From NCBI GenBank assembly GCA_049320585.1, contig JBMOQB010000005.1, forward strand, positions 80,295 through 144,294: a stretch of DNA of 64,000 nucleotides, in the 5' to 3' direction. This DNA comes from Pseudomonadota bacterium (lineage in GTDB: Bacteria; Pseudomonadota; Gammaproteobacteria; Burkholderiales; Gallionellaceae). The notes below the pieces were generated by a model that was given only the letters and a program-made list of their open reading frames with translations, was not told where the DNA came from and did no database searches. This document shows, piece by piece, positions 8,189 through 30,776 of this stretch; the stretch's first letter is position 1; each line of letters begins with the position of its first letter. The position numbers and the translations under genes are program-made.

Positions 8189-8830
8189 ATGAATCAATAT
8201 CCCCACCCGATCATTGCCCGCGAGGGCTGGCCGTTTCTGGCCGCTACGATAATTCTTTCGGCTGCTGCCACGTTTTGGTGCGCTGCATGGTCCATCCCTC
8301 TGTGGATCATCACCGTGTTCGTGTTGCAATTCTTCCGCGATCCTCCGCGAGAAATTCCCTTGGGAGCAGGTGCGGTGCTGTCGCCGGCGGACGGACGCAT
8401 CGTCGCGGTGGAGCGCGTCAACGATCCCTACGTGCAGCGCGAGGCGATCAAGGTCAGCGTGTTCATGAACGTGTTCAACGTGCATTCCAACCGCAGCCCG
8501 GTGGACGGCACGGTGCAGCAGGTCTGGTATTACCCGGGCAAGTTCGTGAATGCCGATTTGGACAAGGCCTCGACCGAAAACGAGCGTAACGCGGTATGGC
8601 TCAAAACAGCCAACGGTACCGACATAACCTCGGTGCAAGTGGCTGGCCTTATCGCGCGGCGTATCCTTTGCTACGTCAAGGCGGGTGATGTACTGACGCG
8701 CGGACAACGCTATGGCTTTATCCGCTTCGGTTCGCGCGTGGATGTATATGTTCCGTTGAGTGCCAATGTCAAGGTCAGCATTGGCGACAAGGTGTCGGCA
8801 ACTACAACCATCTTGGCAGTGCTTGCGTAA
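8189..8830 (+). CDS. psd: Phosphatidylserine decarboxylase proenzyme (short form)
   Basis: 213 aa with the LSPADGRI motif and an FGSRVD self-cleavage-type motif. It is adjacent to pssA. Confidence 0.85.
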
Positions 8831-16788: not shown

Positions 16789-18494
16789 GTTCTGGATTTT
16801 AAGAATTCTTGCGCGTTTTGCAAGGGGATGGATTGTGCAGCAGTGTCCTGTCTGCCCTGGTATTCCACCATTCCCCGCTTAAGGCTGCGTTCACCGATGA
16901 CCACGCGGTGCGGGATACCAATCAACTCCATATCGGCAAACATCACCCCGGGACGCTCGTCACGGTCATCCAGCAAAACCTCGATGTCGGCGGATTGCAA
17001 CTCCGCATACAGATGTTCCACAGCTTTGCGCACGGCATCACTTTTGCCGATACCGATCGGAACCAAGGCAATCTGGAAAGGTGCCATCGCAATCGGCAAT
17101 ACAATACCGCGTTCGTCGAAGTTCTGTTCGATGGCGGCTGCGACGATGCGCGATACGCCGATACCGTAGCAACCCATTTCGACGATTTGCGTTTTGCCAT
17201 GCGCATCCAGAAAAGTTGCCTTGAGAGCTTCGGCATATTTGGTGCGCAACTGGAAGATATGGCCGACTTCGATGCCCCTGCATATCTCCAATGTGCCCTT
17301 GCCGTCCGGAGACGGGTCACCTTCGACCACATTGCGGATATCTGCGATCATGTCTGGCTCTGGCAGGTCGCGATTCCAGTTCACTCCGGCAGTGTGGAAC
17401 TTTGGGCGGTTTGCCCCCACCACGAAGTCACTCATGGCAGCCACGGTGCGATCCGCGATAACCCGGATCTTCGTTCTGTCGATGCCCACCGGACCAAGGA
17501 AGCCGGGCGGACAGTTGAAACTGGCGCGGATCTCTTCATCCGATGCGAAGCGAAAATCGGCGAGGCCGGGCAGCTTGCTTGCCTTGACTTCGTTCAGGCT
17601 GTGGTCGCCGCGCAACAGCAGGATGTGCAGTTTGCCGGCCGAGATGACTGCAATAAGCTTCACCGTGCGTTGCAATGGTATTCCAAGCAATTCCGCCACT
17701 TGTTCGCATGTGGTCTGTCTCGGTGTTTCGACATCACGCATCGATTCGGTTGCTGCGGTACGTGAAATCGCCGGGGCTACGGCTTCCGCAAGTTCCACAT
17801 TGGCGGCGTAATTGGAAGATGGACAGTAAGCCAGCGCGTCTTCGCCCGCATCTGCCAACACATGAAACTCATGCGAGCCGCTACCGCCGATCGCGCCGGT
17901 ATCGGCCGCGACCGCGCGGAACTTCAGCCCCAATCTGGTGAAGATGCGGCTGTATGTGTCATGCATTACGCGGTAGGTCTGTTCCAGGCTGGCAAAGTCG
18001 GCGTGAAATGAATAGGCATCCTTCATCAGGAATTCGCGCGCGCGCATCACCCCGAATCGCGGACGCACTTCGTCGCGGAACTTGGTCTGGATCTGGTAGA
18101 AATTGACCGGCAACTGGCGATAACTGCGGATTTCGCGGCGAGCAATGTCGGTGATCACTTCCTCGTGGGTCGGGCCGAAGCAGAACTGATTGTCGTGCCG
18201 GTCTCTTATTTTTAGCATCTGCGGACCGAATACATCCCAGCGTCCGGTTTCCTGCCAAAGCTCTGCGGGTTGTACTGCGGGCATCAACAATTCGATCCCT
18301 CCGTTCCTGTCCATCTCCTCGCGTATCACGCTTTCAACCTTGCGCAACACACGCAGCCCGAGCGGCATCCAGGTATACAAGCCGCTGGCCAGCTTCTTGA
18401 TGTAACCGGCACGCAGCATCAGTTTGTGGCTGGGAAGCTCCGCTTCGGAAGGGGCTTCCTTGAGTGTGGAGATGAAAAATTGAGAAACGCGCAT
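16779..18494 (-). CDS. proS: Prolyl-tRNA synthetase
   Basis: Starts [15 protein letters not shown]. Class II motifs are present ([25 protein letters not shown]). The track start at 18530 adds 12 unlikely codons. Confidence 0.95.
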
Positions 18495-18695
18495 GGTAAA
18501 CACTGCCCGGTAATATGATTGATGCAGCAATTTTACAGGGAATGCATGCTTTTAGTCTTGTTCATCCTGAAGCAACTGGCAAGGCCATCGCAGATGATGC
18601 GTTCGAAGGGTTGGGCAAAAGCATTGGATTGTCTTTTCATTGCCGATGAAATGTGAAAGAATCAAAACATTAATATTTAACGAATAGAGTAGCAA

Positions 18696-19208
18696 ATGAT
18701 AGACCGAGACGGCTACCGCCCGAATGTCGGCATCATAATCACGAATGACTTGAATCAGGTGTTCTGGGGAAAACGGGTACGCCAGCATGCATGGCAATTT
18801 CCCCAAGGCGGCATACAGCATGGCGAGACACCCGAGCAGGCGATGTACCGCGAGTTGCACGAAGAAGTCGGCTTGTTGCCGGAGCATGTGAAGATACTCG
18901 GACGCACCCGCGACTGGATGCGTTATGAGGTTCCGCAAAGCTGGAGCAAACGGGAATCCCGCGGCGGGTATCGCGGCCAGAAACAGATCTGGTATCTGTT
19001 GCGTTTGATAGGTCGTGATTGTGATGTGTGTCTTCGCGCAAGTTCACATCCTGAGTTTGATGCATGGCGCTGGAATGATTACTGGCTTGATATAAATGCA
19101 GTTATAGAGTTCAAGCGCGAAGTGTATACGATGGCACTTAACGAACTGGTTCGTTATCTTCCTTCGCCTATTCACAATACCCCGCATCTCCATAAAGCTC
19201 AGAAGTAA
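18696..19208 (+). CDS. rppH: RNA pyrophosphohydrolase (Nudix)
   Basis: Starts [15 protein letters not shown], with Nudix box [23 protein letters not shown]. Confidence 0.9.
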
Positions 19209-19358
19209 TTTTCGAGTTTCGTGAGGGTTTAAGGCGTATAAGACCACCGTTATATTAAAAGCCTTATTGCAGAGATCGGGTTTGGGCCGATTTATCTATG
19301 GCAACAAAATGGTTCAAGTGATGATGGTTCACTTGAAATTTCACTTTGGGCAAAATTC

Positions 19359-20399
19359 ATGTTTAAACTGCCACATCAAGTCGCACTTATCGGGTTGTTG
19401 CTTGGTGTTGCCGGCTGCTCTACCGTCAGGGATGAGGCGAATCCGGACGCGGGTTGGTTCGGGAGCGACAGCACGTTGCATACAATTTCCAGGCAGAAAT
19501 TGGCCGGTGACAAGGTGCAAACACCGATCAGGTATGCCGCCACCCTGCAAATCAGCAGATATACGGATCAGCGCAAACAGGTTAATCCACGTTTGCTCGG
19601 AATCAGCACTGAGCTTGTTCGCGGGATAAGTGGCAGCCAGCTGCTGATCGACCAGGATGTCGCGGACCTGGTAACGTCGGCGATCAAAACACAATTCGAA
19701 GCAGAAGGTTTCCGAATGCTGGAACAGGGAGGTGCCGGAGCAGCCATGTTCGAAGTGTCCGGGACGATCAAAGCATTAAGCCTGAACGTCAAATACCGTG
19801 ACGAGATCAACATCGCCATCGAGACTACCGTGAAGGATTTGCGCAACGGGGCGCTGGTCTGGTCCGGCTTGGTGACGGAGAAGCACGATCGCTTTGCCGG
19901 TGTTTCCGGAAACAACAAGGACGACGTGGTCGACTACCTGAGTAAGGAACTGAACATCGCAAGCAACAAAACCGTTGCGGCAGTCAGCACTGCATTGATG
20001 TCTGCTTATCCGCATTTGTTCAGTCTGACCGGCGGTATGCAGGCAATTCCAGGAGTATCGATTTATGCCGTTCCGGCTGCAGCCGAGCCTGCACCGGGGA
20101 TTCCCGCCGACACCATACCCCCCGCCGAAACTCAGACTGGCAGTGTTGCGCCCCTCTCCAAAAAGACGCCCGTCAGTACGGGTTTGCTGGTGGTGAATAC
20201 CAGTCCGTCACGCGCCAGGGTGTACGTTGACGGGGTGTACTATGGCTTGTCTCCGCTGCGGGTGGAAATGGAGCCGGGCATACATGCTGTCGAAGTGAAG
20301 CAACAAAAATACAAAACGATGAGCGAAAAAGTATCGGTGCGTAGGGGCGATACTACCGAGATGGAATTGAGTCTGGATCGCCGACTTCAGCCGGAATGA
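19359..20399 (+). CDS. Lipoprotein with a C-terminal PEGA domain, function unknown
   Basis: Lipobox LLGVAGC. The C-terminus has a PEGA-like fold signature (LLVVNTSPSRARVYVDGVYYGLSPLRVEMEPGIHAVEV). Confidence 0.6.
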   Translation: MFKLPHQVALIGLLLGVAGCSTVRDEANPDAGWFGSDSTLHTISRQKLAGDKVQTPIRYAATLQISRYTDQRKQVNPRLLGISTELVRGISGSQLLIDQDVADLVTSAIKTQFEAEGFRMLEQGGAGAAMFEVSGTIKALSLNVKYRDEINIAIETTVKDLRNGALVWSGLVTEKHDRFAGVSGNNKDDVVDYLSKELNIASNKTVAAVSTALMSAYPHLFSLTGGMQAIPGVSIYAVPAAAEPAPGIPADTIPPAETQTGSVAPLSKKTPVSTGLLVVNTSPSRARVYVDGVYYGLSPLRVEMEPGIHAVEVKQQKYKTMSEKVSVRRGDTTEMELSLDRRLQPE

Positions 20400-22177: not shown

Positions 22178-22852
22178 ATGGCAATCACAGATTGGCCTGA
22201 AGGCGAACGTCCGCGCGAAAAGCTCCTGCTGCGCGGCGCGTCATCTCTTTCCGATGCCGAGCTGTTAGCTATTTTTCTGCGCACAGGAGTGACCGGTAAA
22301 AGTGCGGTAGATCTGGCGCGCGAGTTGATCTCGCATTTCGGCAACCTCACGCAACTGTTTGCTTGCAGCGAGCGGGAATTCTGCGCCATACACGGCATGG
22401 GGCAAGCCAAGTTTGTACAGCTGCAAGCGGTGCTGGAAATGTCGCGGCGCGCATTGCAGGAAGAATTTCAGCGCGGCGACGCGCTGAATTCTCCGCGTGC
22501 TGTGCGTGACTATTTGCAGCTATTGCTGGGCGGGCGGCAGCAGGAGGTTTTTCTGGTGCTGTTCCTCGATACCCAGCATCGCGTGATTGCCTCGGAAGAA
22601 TTGTTCCACGGCACGCTCAGCCAAACCAGCGTATATCCGCGCGAAGTGGTCAAGCGCGCACTGGCTCACAACGCGGCTGCAGTGATACTTGCGCACAACC
22701 ATCCCTCCGGTGTCGCCGAACCCAGCCAGGCTGATCAATTGTTAACCGATGCGCTTAAACAGGCCTTAGGACTGGTGGACGTGCGCGTGCTGGATCATTT
22801 CGTGGTGGCGGTGGGGAAAACCCTATCATTCGCTGAAAGGGGATTGTTATGA
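22178..22852 (+). CDS. radC: RadC-family JAB/MPN domain protein
   Basis: 224 aa with the HNHPSG JAMM motif and an [15 protein letters not shown]-terminal HhH region. Confidence 0.9.
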
Positions 22853-23195
22853 CTTCCGAGCTTGTTTTAAAATGTACCTAGTTTCTTAAAATTACTCATT
22901 TAATCAATGAGAAAATTGATTGATGCTGCATTCAGGTTTGGACTCCAGCATCCGTTATGCCACTCATCCAGTATTTCAACCACTCATCGGCAAGACTTTG
23001 ACTAGAGTACCTGTTTGCCAATAATCTACGCTCACTTGGCAAACTTACCGAAAGGTAAGGACGCAAAGTCACCGGCCTAACGGAATCTATGGTAGCGGGA
23101 CTGCGATACGGAATTTCGTCCGTGTCTCCATACCGTCATTCATAAACCATATTTCTCCTTAAGTGCCCTTGAAATTCGGGTAGAGGAGTATTCAA

Positions 23196-24782
23196 ATGCG
23201 TGCGGATAATGCAAAACCAATAAAGAGGGCGCTGCTTCTGGTTTCGCTATTATTGACTGCGTGTGGAGGTGGCGCTAAAACAACTTGCACCTCCGCCCCT
23301 GCCCCTGCCCCTGCTCCTGTACCCGTTGTCACATCATCGGGTACAGATTTCTTCCTGACGCTGCCCAACCATCTTTGTGCCAGCTCTCCTTCTTCATGCA
23401 ATATCCAGAATACCTCTGTTTCTAACAAGCTAATCGTGACTGCAGCTACAGCTACCACAGGTGAAGCAACATTTTACGGCGTGGTTACTCCATTTTCCGT
23501 ACCAGCTGGCGGAGAAGTTGTGATTACGCTTAACCCGGTTTTTGATTCCATAATGAATAAATGGGTTGATGCAGTTCTCACAAATAATGAGGTGGTCGAA
23601 GCTAAGGGGATACATGTTACGGCATTATCGCCGGTATCCGTTCATGTGGTTTCTGAAACACCCTATACTGCCGATGGTTACCTGGCTCTGCCAACTGCAG
23701 GTCTCGGAACCAGTTATTACGTGATGTCATATGCCAGCACCGGCCAAATCGGATCGGAATTCGCTGTGGTGGCCACTCAGGACAATACATCCGTCACCAT
23801 CACCCCCAAGGCAGCGGGCTCGACTAATCCGGCCAACGTACCGTTTACGGTCGTACTTAACATCGGGCAAACCTATCAATTTGAAAATCCGGCATACGAT
23901 GACGTTACGGGAACACTCGTGACCGCTGATAAGCCTATTGCGGTGTTCAGTGGCCACCGATTTGCCAATTTGCCGTCCAGCTTTGGTTACGGTGACTATC
24001 TCGTCGAGCAACTCCCGGATGTGTCGATCTGGGGCAAGACTCACCACACGTCGCTGTTTAATGGCCGTTCAAGCTACACGGTGCGCGTCTTGGCGTCCCA
24101 GAACAATACCACCTTCACTTCCACAATACCGGCAGGCAATGCAGCCGCGATCGGAACCTTGAATGCCGGAGAGTTTAGGGATGTTGTTATGAGTGGTGTC
24201 GGCGAATTCATTTCCGATAAGCCGGTGCTTGTGGCTCAGTTCATGCACGGTTTTGCGGAGGATAATACCAAAGGTGATCCTAGCATGGTCATTGTTACCC
24301 CGGCGGAGCAAGGCATGATCGATTCCACTTTCGGGGTTCACGGTCTTGCAGGAACGACAGGGGCATTTATGAACGTGGTAACTAAAACAGCGGAACTTGC
24401 AAACCTGAAACTGGACAATGTAGCTGTAGACCTTGCACTTACACCATTCACAAAGGTTGGCGGAACAATCGACTATTCGACGGGCATGATACCGGTCACG
24501 CCCGGAGCGCACACCCTGCAAGGATCCGGTCCTTATAGCGCATTAGTCTATGACTATGGCATTGGGGGTAATGCGGTTTCCTATGCTTACCCTGTTGGGG
24601 CAAATCTCTCTGCGCCTGTAACCCAGACTGCTACACCTGCCAACTCATCTCCGGCGGTGTGCGTGAATAGTCAGGTCGCTGTGAGCAATCTATCAGACGA
24701 TGATTCTGAACATGAAGAGCACGCCAGCATCGATCACCATGAAAATCATGAGCATGACGATGCTCATGATTTAGACGCGTAG
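23196..24782 (+). CDS. Lipoprotein with an IgGFc-binding-like (PF17517-type) beta-helix domain and an acidic His-rich C-terminal tail
   Basis: GAGGAG lies 8 nt upstream of the ATG. Lipobox LLLTAC is followed by a GGG plus (AP)n linker. Motifs GTDFFLTLPNH and DKPIAVFSGHRFANLP...GDYLVEQLPDVSIWGK resemble the IgGFc_binding N-terminal domain; this is from memory, with no search run. The tail is DDDSEHEEHASIDHHENHEHDDAHDLDA. Confidence 0.55.
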   Translation: MRADNAKPIKRALLLVSLLLTACGGGAKTTCTSAPAPAPAPVPVVTSSGTDFFLTLPNHLCASSPSSCNIQNTSVSNKLIVTAATATTGEATFYGVVTPFSVPAGGEVVITLNPVFDSIMNKWVDAVLTNNEVVEAKGIHVTALSPVSVHVVSETPYTADGYLALPTAGLGTSYYVMSYASTGQIGSEFAVVATQDNTSVTITPKAAGSTNPANVPFTVVLNIGQTYQFENPAYDDVTGTLVTADKPIAVFSGHRFANLPSSFGYGDYLVEQLPDVSIWGKTHHTSLFNGRSSYTVRVLASQNNTTFTSTIPAGNAAAIGTLNAGEFRDVVMSGVGEFISDKPVLVAQFMHGFAEDNTKGDPSMVIVTPAEQGMIDSTFGVHGLAGTTGAFMNVVTKTAELANLKLDNVAVDLALTPFTKVGGTIDYSTGMIPVTPGAHTLQGSGPYSALVYDYGIGGNAVSYAYPVGANLSAPVTQTATPANSSPAVCVNSQVAVSNLSDDDSEHEEHASIDHHENHEHDDAHDLDA

Positions 24783-24793
24783 TTGACAATTTC

Positions 24794-26272
24794 ATGTATA
24801 TTATCTTGATGAAACTGATAAACCTAGCAATCACTTCGATCTGGATATTATTCGGTTTGCTGACGGTTACATGTGGGGCGGCATATGCACAGGAAACCGG
24901 GCAAAAAGCGCGTCAGCGCTCCGGACTCTTGCCAGTGGGTCAGAAGGAGATTGATTCCTATGAGAAACTACTCCGCGAAGCCGATGCCTTGATCAGAAGC
25001 GGAAAGCCCGTAGATGCCTATGCTTTATTGGAACCGCTGGAATTCGAACATGCCGGCGAAGTGCGTTTTGACCATATGATTGGTATCGCAGCTCTGGATA
25101 GCGGCAAGCCGGACAAGGCAACGCTGGCCTTTGAGCGAATTTTGGCCGTCGATCCTGATTTTCCCGCTGCGCGGTTTGATATGGGAAAATCCTATTATCA
25201 AATGGGCGATTTGTCACGTGCCAAGATCGAGTTTGTAATTGCCTTGAAACAAAACCCTTCTGAAAAAGCGCGTGCCAGCATCGATAAATATCTGAATGAT
25301 ATTGCTTCCCGGGAAGCCGGTGCTAATACAGTCATTACCGGATTTGCAGCAGGAACAGTTGGGCATGATAGCAACGTCAATAGCTCCACCAGTCAGTCGC
25401 AAATCTTTGTTGATTTACCAGCGACTATTATCACGCTTGATCCAACCAACGTAAAAGTATCAGACAATTACTATGGGGTGGCCGCAGGTGCAGAAATCAC
25501 TCACATGCAGAATGCAAATTTAGGTTTCTCTGCAGGAGCAGATCTGATAGAGCGCGGCAATATCACACAAAAGAGTTTTAACACACTCGGCCTGGATGCT
25601 CGAGCTGGAATGATAGTTGGTGCAAAAACCAATCGAATTCGCTTAGAGATGTTGGCCGGGAGGCGCACATTGGGCGGCTTGAAAAATTACGATACCACTG
25701 GCTTAAAAGCGGATTGGCGCCGTATGTTCAGTCCGAGCAATCAATTGAATGTGTTTGCCCAATATGTGCAATATCGCTATGCCGATCCGTATATGAAGCC
25801 GAATGATATTGACCAGCAGGCTGTAGGACTAGGCTGGCTACATGTGTTGGCTGACAGCAGGTCCTCACTGTCCGGCAGCATACATTACGGCACCGAGAAT
25901 GATGTTTCGCCAATCATCAATGTCAATGTACCCGTATTCGGAACTATTATTGTTAATCCAGGCGGCGGGCGTAACGATGGCGCCAAACGTTTCAGCGGGA
26001 TTCGTGCCGGCGGCTTAGTGTTCATCAACAAGACAACGGCACTGTTTTCCAGCGTAGGAATACAGGTGGGCGATTATGACAAAGTCAATTACTACTTTCT
26101 GCGCCAACGTCACGATCGTTTCTATGACCTGAAGTTCGGAGCTGATTGGCGTTGGGAAAAACTGTGGGCGCTGCGCCCTCAGTTAAGCTTTTTCAGGAAC
26201 GTTTCAAATATTCCTGTCTACGCCTATGACCGAATGGATTTTTCACTGACTGTTCGCCGGGATTTTCGGTAA
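24794..26272 (+). CDS. TPR-repeat plus C-terminal beta-barrel outer-membrane protein, Slam/DUF560 (type XI secretion)-like architecture
   Basis: 492 aa. The signal peptide ends AYA-QE, followed by ~150 aa of TPR-like repeats (FERILAVDPDFPAARFDMGKSYYQMGDLSRAKIEF). About 300 aa of alternating amphipathic strands then begin at GHDSNVNSS. Size and order match Slam proteins. It starts 12 nt after the lipoprotein gene. Confidence 0.5.
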   Translation: MYIILMKLINLAITSIWILFGLLTVTCGAAYAQETGQKARQRSGLLPVGQKEIDSYEKLLREADALIRSGKPVDAYALLEPLEFEHAGEVRFDHMIGIAALDSGKPDKATLAFERILAVDPDFPAARFDMGKSYYQMGDLSRAKIEFVIALKQNPSEKARASIDKYLNDIASREAGANTVITGFAAGTVGHDSNVNSSTSQSQIFVDLPATIITLDPTNVKVSDNYYGVAAGAEITHMQNANLGFSAGADLIERGNITQKSFNTLGLDARAGMIVGAKTNRIRLEMLAGRRTLGGLKNYDTTGLKADWRRMFSPSNQLNVFAQYVQYRYADPYMKPNDIDQQAVGLGWLHVLADSRSSLSGSIHYGTENDVSPIINVNVPVFGTIIVNPGGGRNDGAKRFSGIRAGGLVFINKTTALFSSVGIQVGDYDKVNYYFLRQRHDRFYDLKFGADWRWEKLWALRPQLSFFRNVSNIPVYAYDRMDFSLTVRRDFR

Positions 26273-26295
26273 TTCAACTGAGTGGAGGTGCGATC

Positions 26296-27120
26296 ATGAA
26301 CACCACAAAACTTTTCACCGCTTATATTAATATTATTTTAGCAGCTTGCCTGACATTGTTGTTCCAGGCCGCTTACGCAGGTGTTGCCGGGCATGTCCAG
26401 TTTGTGAATGGACAGGTCCAGATCACCAGCACGTCAGGGCAGGTCCGTTCACTGAAGAAAGCGGATGCAGTGAACGAGAGCGATACCCTGACCACGGCGA
26501 AGGATGGTTCCGCGCAAATCAAGATGCTGGACGGAGGTCTTGTTGCAGTAAGGCCGGATTCCAAACTTAAATTCGACAGCTTCGTGTTTTCCGGTGAAGC
26601 GGACGGCAATGAGAGGAGCTTCTTCTCTTTGTTAAGAGGCGGATTTCGTGCGATCACCGGCGTGGTCGGACATAAGAACAAGGCAAATTATCGTATTACC
26701 ACAGCCGGAGCGACGATTGGTGTTCGCGGCACCGATCATGAAACTTTCGTGGTTGTGCCGGGTAGCGAGATGGCGGCAATTGCGCCTGTTGGTACTTATA
26801 ACAAGGTGAATGTCGGCGAGACCGTGATGACGACTGGTAAAGGCACTATTAACATTCTGCCCAACCAGATGGGTTTTACCTCTGCTGCCGACCAATTGCC
26901 GCAGTTGCAACCTATCAATCTCAACATATTTGCCCCTGTGTCGTCTCCAGCACTTCAAGGCAACGGAGGAAAAACAACAGGAGCGGTAAGTCAAAGTGCG
27001 GTCGTCGATAGCATAATTCAGGAGCAGAATGCAGCAACCGGGAATGCTGTGCCGAACAATACCATTTTGCGTCCGATCATAGACGATCACGGTGGTGCTG
27101 CACCACCGAGCGTTTACTAA
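26296..27120 (+). CDS. Secreted FecR-domain protein
   Basis: The signal peptide ends AYA-GV. A FecR-like segment follows (GQVQITSTSGQVRSLKKADAVNESDTLTTAKDGSAQIKMLDGGLVAVRPDSKLKFD ... TIGVRGTDH). The C-terminal third is low complexity. Confidence 0.6.
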   Translation: MNTTKLFTAYINIILAACLTLLFQAAYAGVAGHVQFVNGQVQITSTSGQVRSLKKADAVNESDTLTTAKDGSAQIKMLDGGLVAVRPDSKLKFDSFVFSGEADGNERSFFSLLRGGFRAITGVVGHKNKANYRITTAGATIGVRGTDHETFVVVPGSEMAAIAPVGTYNKVNVGETVMTTGKGTINILPNQMGFTSAADQLPQLQPINLNIFAPVSSPALQGNGGKTTGAVSQSAVVDSIIQEQNAATGNAVPNNTILRPIIDDHGGAAPPSVY

Positions 27121-27179: not shown

Positions 27180-28583
<1,404 letters not shown>

Positions 28584-29678: not shown

Positions 29679-30132
29679 AATGCACCAGTTGGTCGAGTGG
29701 ATAGCGCTTCCCCGTCAAATAATCTTCCACACAGCGCAAGATCAGCGGGCTGCGATGGCGCTTTTGCGTGGCGCGAATTTCATCGGGCGTCAGCCATATG
29801 GCTTGCAGGATGCCGGCGTCGAGCTGACGATCAGTCTCGTGGCCGGTGATCTTGCCGGTAAAGGCGAAGCGCAGATAGGTGGTGTCCGATTCCAAGGAAT
29901 GCCAGCGATAGATACCGAGCAGATGTTGCGGGACAAAATGATACGCCGACTCTTCCAGCACTTCGCGCGCCACGCCCTCCAGCAACGATTCACCGGCTTC
30001 TAGATGGCCAGCGGGCTGATTGAAGCGTAAACCTTGTGAGGTTTCTTCTTCCACAAGCAAAAATTTTCCATCGCGCTCAATGATGCCGGCGACGGTGACG
30101 TTAGGTTTCCAGATCATGCTGTGCCAGTTCAA
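29671..30132 (-). CDS. Nudix hydrolase (NudJ-like)
   Basis: Nudix box [22 protein letters not shown]. It overlaps the mnmA start by 8 nt. Confidence 0.8.
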
Positions 30133-30180
30133 ATTATCTGCATAGTTTAAATGGAAAATCGAGAGAAATGAAAAAGGCAG

Positions 30181-30204
30181 GGTTGTCCCTGCCTTTTCCG
30201 AATC
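30181..30204 (-). terminator. Rho-independent terminator after psiF
   Basis: GGCAGGG (30187-93) pairs with CCCTGCC (30198-204) across loop ttgt. A T5 run follows on the minus strand (30182-86). Confidence 0.75.
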
Positions 30205-30250
30205 GCCCGAAACTACTGGGTTACAACAATTATTGTGCGGACGGGATAGA

Positions 30251-30502
30251 CTAAGACTTTTTCAAGCAAGATTTCATGAATTCTTTCCGTTCGGCTTTCT
30301 TAAGGCCTTTTTCTTTTGCATCCTTATTGCAGAGCTTCATTTTTGCTTGCTGTGGATTCGACTTTTTCTGTGCAGCAGAGGCAGACTTGGTAGCCGGTGT
30401 GCCTGCCGGCTTGGCAGGAGCCGCAGCCTCTTCAGCAGCAACAGCGGAGTAAGTGACAACAGTGAATACAGCTGCGATCAGTGCAGATAACAGTTTGCTC
30501 AT
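30251..30502 (-). CDS. psiF: PsiF-family phosphate-starvation-inducible protein
   Basis: Signal peptide, then the PsiF repeat signature QAKMKLCNKDAKEKGLKKAERKEFMKSCLKK. The start at 30502 has GGAG 7 nt upstream. Confidence 0.7.
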   Translation of the reverse strand: MSKLLSALIAAVFTVVTYSAVAAEEAAAPAKPAGTPATKSASAAQKKSNPQQAKMKLCNKDAKEKGLKKAERKEFMKSCLKKS

Positions 30503-30611
30503 ATTGGACTCCATTATTTAGTAAGCAGATTAATAAATGGTATATAGGACACTCAACGTGTCGATGCCCATAACGCTTGGCGTATTTGTTCGGTTGACAC
30601 TGCTGAATAAT

Positions 30612-30698
30612 TGGTGCCGGGGGGGGGACTCGAACCCCCACGTTCTCTCGAACACCGGATTTTGAGTCCGGCACGTCTACCAGTTCCATCACCCCGGC
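30612..30698 (-). tRNA. tRNA-Leu (anticodon CAA)
   Basis: The reverse complement folds as a cloverleaf. The acceptor stem is GCCGGGG/CCCCGGC. The anticodon stem is CCGGA/TCCGG with loop CTCAAAA. There is a long variable arm, a T-arm GGGGGTTCGAGTCCCCC and an encoded CCA. Confidence 0.9.
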
Positions 30699-30776
30699 GA
30701 AGCGGGGCGCATTATCCATGAAGCACAGGCCAACATCAACTACAATTCCGCCTTTGCAACATTTCCGATCGTGCTC

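Follow-up and report, generated by a model that had tools for sequence, protein, structure and literature searches.

A predicted c-di-GMP-I riboswitch, a lipoprotein gene, a DUF560-family barrel gene, and a FecR-module gene at the radC-purB locus of Gallionellaceae: a possible divergent type 11 secretion operon

Results

The radC-purB locus

The window analyzed here is a stretch of 64,000 nucleotides from a member of the Gallionellaceae (contig JBMOQB010000005.1), and this report deals with three genes on its plus strand that lie between radC and purB and follow a leader with a predicted cyclic di-GMP (c-di-GMP) riboswitch. Gene A (23196..24782; 528 amino acids, aa) encodes a predicted lipoprotein, gene B (24794..26272; 492 aa) a protein with tetratricopeptide repeats (TPRs) and a predicted beta-barrel, and gene C (26296..27120; 274 aa) a predicted secreted FecR-domain protein. 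radC (22178..22852) directly precedes the leader, which separates it from A by 343 nt; A and B are 11 nt apart, B and C 23 nt, and purB (27180..28553) is convergent with the trio. These open reading frames (ORFs), gaps, leader, and flanking genes agree exactly with a preliminary description of the locus, which had also predicted the families PF17517, PF04575, and PF04773 for A, B, and C; profile searches bore out all three. Since the NCBI pipeline already names the proteins "IgGFc-binding protein," "surface lipoprotein assembly modifier," and "FecR family protein" (MFZ5522644-46), the gene-level calls are not new. Met6 of the B ORF is the residue that aligns with the conserved methionine of the B homologs; translation may therefore begin at 24809, which would widen the A-B gap to 26 nt.

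A predicted riboswitch in the leader

The leader contains a predicted c-di-GMP-I (GEMM-I) riboswitch, which was overlooked in the preliminary description and which we regard as the real regulatory input of the operon. The aptamer (23028..23108, plus strand) matches RF01051 with 70.5 bits (gathering score of 35; E = 8e-13) over model positions 1 to 87 of 87 and is the sole riboswitch in the window. It ends 87 nt before the start codon of A and begins just after a promoter-like site on the plus strand (TTGACT, 16 nt, AATAAT; 22998..23025), the best sigma-70-type match in the region with 10 of 12 positions. Because the count of sigma-70-type sites in the region is not above that in shuffles, this site is supported by its position and its conservation, not by the scan; the TTTGAC of the −35 element is invariant in 12 orthologous leaders.

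The riboswitch tracks gene A rather than B or C. RF01051 scores in 11 orthologous leaders were 61.8 to 72.8 bits, and covariance-model scans found the riboswitch directly upstream of A at every one of the 11 scanned loci that have the gene and at none of the 11 that lack it. A pattern for the core sequence extended this to 23 of 23 A-containing loci and no A-less locus. At one locus (L015), a B'-C' pair precedes the trio, and yet the riboswitch still lies immediately before A.

The putative expression platform follows the aptamer (23109..23195, plus strand) and contains a hairpin that is conserved according to the leader alignment and RNAalifold. Here, CUCCUU (23155..23160, plus strand) faces the Shine-Dalgarno sequence GAGGAG (23183..23188), and no terminator-like site separates the aptamer from the A start codon; together, this suggests translational control.

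The barrel protein B

B starts with a signal peptide (cleavage at AYA/Q) that is conserved in alignment A1, continues with TPR helices (residues 51 to 174; 24944..25315), and ends with a predicted barrel (residues 178 to 491; 25325..26266), all on the plus strand. PF04575 (SlipAM) matched with 28.2 bits (cut-off of 22) over profile positions 9 to 288 of 288, and several TPR families matched as well. Among 35 diverse relatives of B, PF04575 was found in 25 (best E = 6e-15) and was the sole barrel family matched by most; the Slam-specific TPR model PF24575 reached 13 bits in B and matched 4 of the 35. An exhaustive profile search returned 1,094 representative clusters at E ≤ 1e-30, and the family of B is thus large.

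An AlphaFold model built on 48 homologs (mean predicted local distance difference test score, pLDDT, of 84, with most of the barrel above 90) shows the signal peptide and a short disordered stretch, seven helices assigned to three TPR repeats, and then 14 long strands, linked by short turns on the periplasmic side and by longer loops on the opposite one; both ends are periplasmic as well. The number of strands is relevant since the Slam barrel is predicted to have 14 and barrels of the PgaA/BcsC class have 16; PgaA-type barrels are known to cross-match PF04575, and PgaA-like matches were removed from the DUF560 network for this reason (PMC8406197). In Foldseek searches with the model, the best target-normalized scores went to 14-strand barrels such as CymA and OmpG, and a PDB sequence search found only TPR proteins. 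Thus, the Slam/DUF560-like layout of signal peptide, TPRs, and barrel that had been read from the sequence was recovered by profile and model alike, including the expected strand number, and both place B in the DUF560/Slam barrel family of the type 11 secretion system (T11SS) as a divergent member.

In Table S1 of the DUF560 network (Grossman et al. 2021, PMC8406197), PF04575-plus-TPR proteins of Gallionellales and of Sideroxydans ES-1 (Slit_2212) are listed, apparently in cluster 2; they may not be orthologs of B. The nine DUF560 clusters other than cluster 1 have no characterized protein (PMC8406197).

The FecR-module protein C

C has a signal peptide (residues 1 to 28; cleavage at AYA/G), a conserved module (residues 29 to 215; 26380..26940, plus strand) with an invariant G-x-R-G-T-D-H-E, and a low-complexity tail of ~60 residues (216 to 274) that ends PPxV[FY]. 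Its designation as a secreted FecR-domain protein holds: the signal peptide can be read directly and is conserved (alignment A3), and PF04773 (FecR) matches residues 63 to 148 with 41.7 bits. The only significant relative of the C profile among solved structures was PDB 5ix9 (E = 8.7e-5; residues 32 to 100), the N-terminal domain of MpIBP, which served as the template for the LapA retention module (bioRxiv 10.1101/198937). This module is a folded periplasmic plug that holds LapA in its TolC-like pore (bioRxiv 10.1101/198937). The NCBIfam entry that models LapA's retention module, NF033682, gave 31.3 bits with C (E = 2e-7), below its cut-off of 50. No RTX repeat family matched C, and no LapG-type site ([T/A/P]AA[G/V]) was noticed in its tail, which was read by eye without a systematic search. 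Hence, C may work like a retention module and yet, judged from its sequence, is not a member of the LapA family.

The lipoprotein A

A has a lipobox (L-T-A-C23), a Gly/Pro-Ala tether of the type GGG/(AP)n up to about residue 46, and an all-beta body (residues 47 to 455), of which residues 160 to 452 match PF17517 (IgGFc_binding) with 221 bits. The layout is conserved in alignment A2, including an N-terminal beta domain with two conserved cysteines; Cys23 and Ala22 of the lipobox are conserved in at least 90%, and the residue at +2 is Gly. Lipobox, tether, and IgGFc-binding-like domain had all been noted before and stand. By these sequence features, A is a lipoprotein, and with its signal peptidase II-type (SPII) signal peptide, lipobox, and flexible anchor peptide, it has the N-terminal marks of a Slam-dependent surface lipoprotein. 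The protein is 100% identical to MFZ5522644.1.

After residue ~455, there is only a second Pro/Ala linker, one invariant cysteine (Cys489), and a disordered tail rich in His, Asp, and Glu (residues 490 to 528). The composition of the tail and the invariant Cys just before it suggest metal binding. Seen over residues 466 to 528 (24591..24779), the tail region varies in length, and many relatives end H-E-C-[DH] (alignment A2). The predicted model (pLDDT of 70; predicted TM-score of 0.71) is all-beta over residues 48 to 453, with tether and tail disordered. Foldseek found no solved structure like this model (TM-scores ≤ 0.16), and therefore the "beta-helix" label of the preliminary description could not be confirmed; a PDB sequence search with A found nothing. 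The suspicion that A lacks a C-terminal 8-strand barrel was confirmed by both hidden Markov models (HMMs; no match to NF041636 or PF01298) and the structural model. Nor was there a match to a TbpB-like module in A, in C, or in any other ORF of the window.

Giant relatives of C

Where A is absent, the FecR-domain ORF has about 280 to more than 2,000 residues. In the long proteins, Pfam recognizes only the N-terminal FecR domain; their layout is a signal peptide, the FecR module, a charged linker, an Ala/Thr-rich region, and repeated modules of ~190 residues, the last of which ends GVAAFHR. Residues 11 to 219 of C are 64% identical to the N-terminal part of a Ferrigenium straubiae protein of 882 aa, and the barrel is less similar to its counterpart there (64% for the FecR module versus 47% for the barrel). 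C of the window appears to be the plug-only form of the giant FecR-module proteins. Giants of 850 to more than 2,000 aa were seen at L062 (7350-10004; F. straubiae KS), L063, L076, L078-L080, and L086 (6344-8947), with ends of the form GVAAF[HK]R. The same architecture stands next to distant barrels (L086, 867 aa; L082, 482 aa).

Two divergent modules of the giants matched NF041636 ("Slam-dependent surface lipoprotein") over most of the profile (E = 6.5e-7 and 7.4e-6), one matched PF01298 (TbpB_B_D; E = 7e-4), and a profile of 14 module sequences had TbpB (PDB 5kkx; E = 0.04) as its best PDB match. The terminal modules of L082 and L086 are divergent and had no match to the Slam-cargo models on their own, and PDB sequence searches with the first alignment of terminal modules and with a single module found nothing. 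All signals, below curated cut-offs as they are, point to TbpB-like, Slam-cargo-like domains, and none points elsewhere. Since the giant fusions stand beside barrels, the FecR module, Slam-type cargo domains, and the barrel family would be tied together by gene fusion.

At L037 (1434-2486), the FecR-module ORF lies upstream of its barrel and ends in a run of GKGI repeats. At the distant locus L082 (3170-3790, minus strand), a gene with a weak guanylate/adenylate cyclase match adjoins the FecR-barrel pair on the opposite strand.

Co-occurrence in relatives

Relatives were collected by homolog look-ups on long contigs and by a scan of one genome per species, which used alignment A1 of the closer B homologs and returned Gallionellaceae only. 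ORFs of the resulting 76 species-level loci, all from Gallionellaceae, were scanned with HMMs from the A, B, and C alignments and with HMMs for radC, purB, coaBC, and mnmA. The loci contain 83 barrel copies. A FecR-domain ORF lies directly downstream of the barrel in 68 of the 79 copies with enough downstream sequence, and an A-type lipoprotein lies directly upstream in 23 of the 72 copies with enough upstream sequence. These 23 barrels are the ones most similar to B of the window, and A is always directly upstream of them (23/23). Furthermore, in all four distant loci examined, where the B homologs are 28 to 35% identical and the genomic contexts differ, a FecR-module gene adjoins the barrel. 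Because the FecR neighbor accompanies B beyond the family and A is found with 23 of 72 barrels, the conserved core is B plus C, and A is a clade-specific addition. The co-occurrence is far beyond chance. Co-conservation of the three genes, for which the preliminary description had asked for a test, stands as far as the order of the trio recurs across Gallionellaceae; it does not stand for A as a general member, the constant partner of the barrel being the FecR protein.

Modules of this family make the radC-purB slot a hot spot. Its contents vary from locus to locus: the trio by itself or flanked on either side by a second barrel-FecR pair, only such a pair, a barrel next to a giant FecR-module gene, or just a barrel. 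A second pair next to the trio was observed among L003, L008, L012, L015, L016, L017, and L024, and slots with only a pair, a barrel plus giant gene, or a barrel alone at L044, L047, L048, L052, L058, and L060. At L008, the trio and the second barrel are separated by a partial radC-like ORF (8270-8755), which scores 181 bits where the full copy scores 423 and may be a recombination scar left when the cassette inserted.

The impression that trio and leader are more AT-rich than their flanks is real: GC contents are 0.48 to 0.51 in the trio versus 0.54 to 0.58 in the flanks, GC at third codon positions (GC3) is 0.49 to 0.53 versus 0.62 to 0.69, and the leader has a GC content of 0.42. The GC3 offset recurs in 18 of 20 relatives, also in A-less loci, and is thus a stable property of these genes and not the mark of a recent transfer. 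Accordingly, the terms "orphan" and "insert" of the preliminary description could not be kept; the order radC-A-B-C-purB recurs in relatives whose B is 50 to 69% identical.

Discussion

Proposed function of the locus

We favor, at about even chances, a model in which the locus encodes a type 11 secretion variant under c-di-GMP control: B would be the pore, C would act in the periplasm as an anchor or plug, and A, a lipoprotein confined to one clade, would probably be the cargo. Riboswitch, A, B, and C would constitute a single operon for a divergent T11SS from the uncharacterized environmental part of the Slam/DUF560 family. In the model, c-di-GMP binds to the leader RNA and alters the expression of the operon, probably at translation initiation via the CUCCUU/GAGGAG pairing. 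All three proteins would be exported via Sec; A would be lipidated and sent to the outer membrane, and B would insert there as a barrel of 14 strands, the TPR domain being on the periplasmic side. The FecR-like module of C would stay in the periplasm at the mouth of B, like the homologous LapA retention module under its pore, from where the flexible tail of ~60 residues could reach into or through the B pore. In the sister loci, the barrel would export a fiber that is tethered by its N-terminal FecR-module plug, the giants being non-lipidated and ending in TbpB-like barrels. In the clade of the window, the passenger part may have been lost from C and the separate lipoprotein A added under riboswitch control. 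A would then most likely be moved to the surface by B, so that its beta-rich body and metal-binding-type tail face the environment. The data show the parts and their families, their conservation and linkage, the 14 predicted strands, and the riboswitch. We infer the physical interaction of B and C, the plug role of C, the surface exposure of A, and a role in attachment or in contact with metals or minerals from genes, profiles, and predicted structures.

Several observations weigh against this model. A lacks the C-terminal 8-strand barrel, besides which no feature is yet known that targets cargo to T11SS pores (PMC12282271), and this speaks against A as cargo, a role that we nevertheless regard as plausible for it. 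Only 23 of 72 barrels have an A, and hence the family as a whole can do without it. The retention-module match of C spans only ~70 residues and stays below the NCBIfam cut-off, and no match between a giant module and a Slam-cargo model reaches the curated cut-off, with NF041636 matched by only 2 of 12 sequences. There was no solved Slam barrel among the Foldseek matches of B, for which BcsC (1.9e-11) and PelB (2.2e-10; PDB 9h80) gave the best E-values. Finally, when 12 leaders were folded with an enforced or a disrupted aptamer, no consistent change in the accessibility of the Shine-Dalgarno sequence was seen; this sequence was predicted to be paired with CUCCUU in every modeled state.

Alternative explanations

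Our main rival explanation, which we hold to be unlikely, takes up the first of these points. Here, the barrel would work only with the FecR-module protein, whose tail would be the sole element to cross the membrane. A would be either an accessory that faces the periplasm, like PelC for PelB or LptE for LptD, or a protein that binds metal in the periplasm. Lipoproteins of the periplasm, too, can have long disordered tethers. B and C as the conserved pair, the clade-specific nature of A, and its missing cargo barrel would all fit, and so would the dependence of PelB, a protein with TPRs plus a barrel and among the top fold matches of B, on a lipoprotein partner. However, A is large, with ~400 residues in its folded part, other members of its domain family occur in secreted adhesive proteins, and its variable, low-complexity tail is what one would expect of an exposed segment. 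Moreover, the riboswitch accompanies A and not B or C, and Slam genes typically adjoin the genes of their lipoprotein cargo (PMC5449769).

It is quite improbable, in our judgment, that B is a polysaccharide secretin of the PelB/BcsC/PgaA kind that serves to export or organize a c-di-GMP-controlled exopolysaccharide, where lipoprotein A would bind or process glycans and C would be an adaptor in the periplasm. c-di-GMP typically controls exopolysaccharide secretion systems, and the PelB-PelC, BcsC, and PgaA systems have several features in common with the locus: the TPR-plus-barrel layout, the best Foldseek E-values for B, a lipoprotein partner (Pel), and c-di-GMP dependence, and a PF04575 match would be compatible with a PgaA-type barrel (PMC8406197). 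Nonetheless, these systems have 16-strand barrels, much longer TPR arrays, and synthase operons, whereas the B model has 14 strands and low TM-scores to BcsC and PelB (0.33 to 0.41), and no synthase, glycosyltransferase, or processing enzyme was found in the operon, in the window, or in the distant loci. The sister loci, furthermore, pair the barrel with proteins that carry TbpB-like modules.

More improbable still is that C acts as a FecR-type sensor that perceives an envelope or metal signal at the barrel and relays it inward, a role close to the sensing or signaling add-on that the preliminary description had suspected in C. It could draw on the FecR domain, which C shares with the FecR/PupR anti-sigma regulators (PF04773), and on FecR regulators reported near some hemophilin-type T11SS loci (bioRxiv 10.1101/2023.03.15.532718). 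FecR/PupR proteins, however, have an anti-sigma domain, a transmembrane helix, a C-terminal domain that contacts the transducer, and a sigma-factor gene nearby, and C has none of the four. It matched neither DUF4880 nor DUF4974, has no transmembrane segment and, instead of a membrane anchor, a signal peptide that is cleaved, and is adjoined by housekeeping genes, with no gene for an extracytoplasmic function sigma factor or a TonB-dependent transducer next to it. In addition, it is the family-wide partner of the barrel, and in relatives, structural proteins that can reach about 2,000 aa begin with the same module. Read from its sequence, C is therefore not a FecR-type anti-sigma regulator, and the signaling role is not supported. 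That the trio is a recently acquired foreign island is barely credible and was rejected, despite the low GC and GC3, the variable radC-purB slot, and the possible scar at L008, because the trio keeps its position and order in many species with proteins that are only 50 to 70% identical, the GC3 offset is shared by relatives and by A-less loci, and no integrase, transposase, or tRNA was found at its borders.

Comparison with known systems

We return to the model of a c-di-GMP-controlled T11SS variant. With Slam1 and Slam2 and their cargo TbpB, LbpB, fHbp, and HpuA (Neisseria; DUF560 cluster 1), the system of the window shares periplasmic TPRs plus a 14-strand PF04575 barrel encoded beside a long-tethered lipoprotein, and TbpB-like terminal modules occur in its relatives. 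It differs in that the lipoprotein has no 8-strand barrel, that a secreted FecR-module protein is a constant partner, that no TonB-dependent receptor or iron regulation lies nearby, and that control would be by a c-di-GMP riboswitch, in a free-living Gallionellaceae-type host. The secretors of the HrpB-HrpC, hemophilin, and HphA kind move non-lipidated Sec cargo with a C-terminal barrel, encoded beside a DUF560 pore, and in this resemble the sister loci with their giants. Cargo of the hemophilin type is small and released, though, whereas the giants reach about 2,000 aa, have a repeated barrel-like module, and start with a plug-like domain, which suggests attachment.

The adhesins LapA and MpIBP, which sit in the TolC-like pore LapE and are released by LapG under the control of LapD and c-di-GMP, offer a parallel to C, whose N-terminal ~70 residues match their retention domain by E-value, with the NCBIfam score below its cut-off. 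The shared logic would be a folded periplasmic plug, a flexible segment, a surface-exposed part, and c-di-GMP as the governing signal. In contrast to C, LapA is secreted by the type 1 route, carries RTX repeats, and lacks a signal peptide, and the system described here has Sec signal peptides and a DUF560 beta-barrel pore. c-di-GMP acts via LapD and LapG in the case of LapA and, by prediction, via RNA in the window.

c-di-GMP-I riboswitches are known upstream of adhesin, pilus, and motility genes, for example in Vibrio, Geobacter, and Clostridioides, and like these, the locus is an envelope or surface-protein operon whose 5' leader holds a GEMM-I aptamer in full length. We found no report of such a riboswitch before a DUF560/T11SS operon or in Gallionellaceae, no relevant literature on IgGFc or FecR in connection with Gallionellaceae or on Slit_2211-2213, and none on the PF17517 IgGFc_binding domain in bacteria. 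In sum, the components are of known kinds, and what is not described in the literature searched is their combination, i.e., a DUF560 barrel with a FecR/retention partner, fusions of the latter to giant TbpB-like proteins, a barrel-less lipoprotein in one clade, and a c-di-GMP riboswitch.

It is imaginable, if on balance rather doubtful, that this holds for environmental DUF560/T11SS branches at large: a FecR-like plug would tether giant, non-lipidated proteins in the barrel, and the clade of the window would have split this arrangement into the plug C and the barrel-less lipoprotein cargo A under a c-di-GMP riboswitch. If true, the tethering by a plug would be a Sec-dependent beta-barrel counterpart of LapA/LapE tethering in type 1 secretion, and the split into plug and cargo would mean that T11SS pores recognize cargo without an 8-strand barrel, possibly via the FecR-module partner. 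In the T11SS field, only the animal-associated cluster 1 is characterized, and cargo and targeting signals of the other clusters are unknown (PMC8406197; PMC12282271). For such an uncharacterized branch, the locus and its relatives offer a candidate partner in the FecR/retention module, a series of candidate cargo from giant proteins with TbpB-like ends to a barrel-less lipoprotein, and a defined regulatory input, c-di-GMP. Gallionellaceae build iron-oxide structures and must manage contact with mineral surfaces, and for this reason A, predicted to be c-di-GMP-switched and with a tail rich in His, Asp, and Glu, is a reasonable candidate for attachment or metal contact.

Other features of the window

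Two further low-GC patches lie elsewhere in the window. The first (18250..19500; GC content of 0.45 to 0.51) overlaps a NUDIX gene and the start of a PEGA-domain gene (19359..20399; 346 aa), which is kept at the same position in relatives (L001). The second (30000..30750; 0.47 to 0.49) lies downstream of mnmA and a NUDIX gene, around a tRNA (30615..30698, minus strand) that is conserved in relatives.

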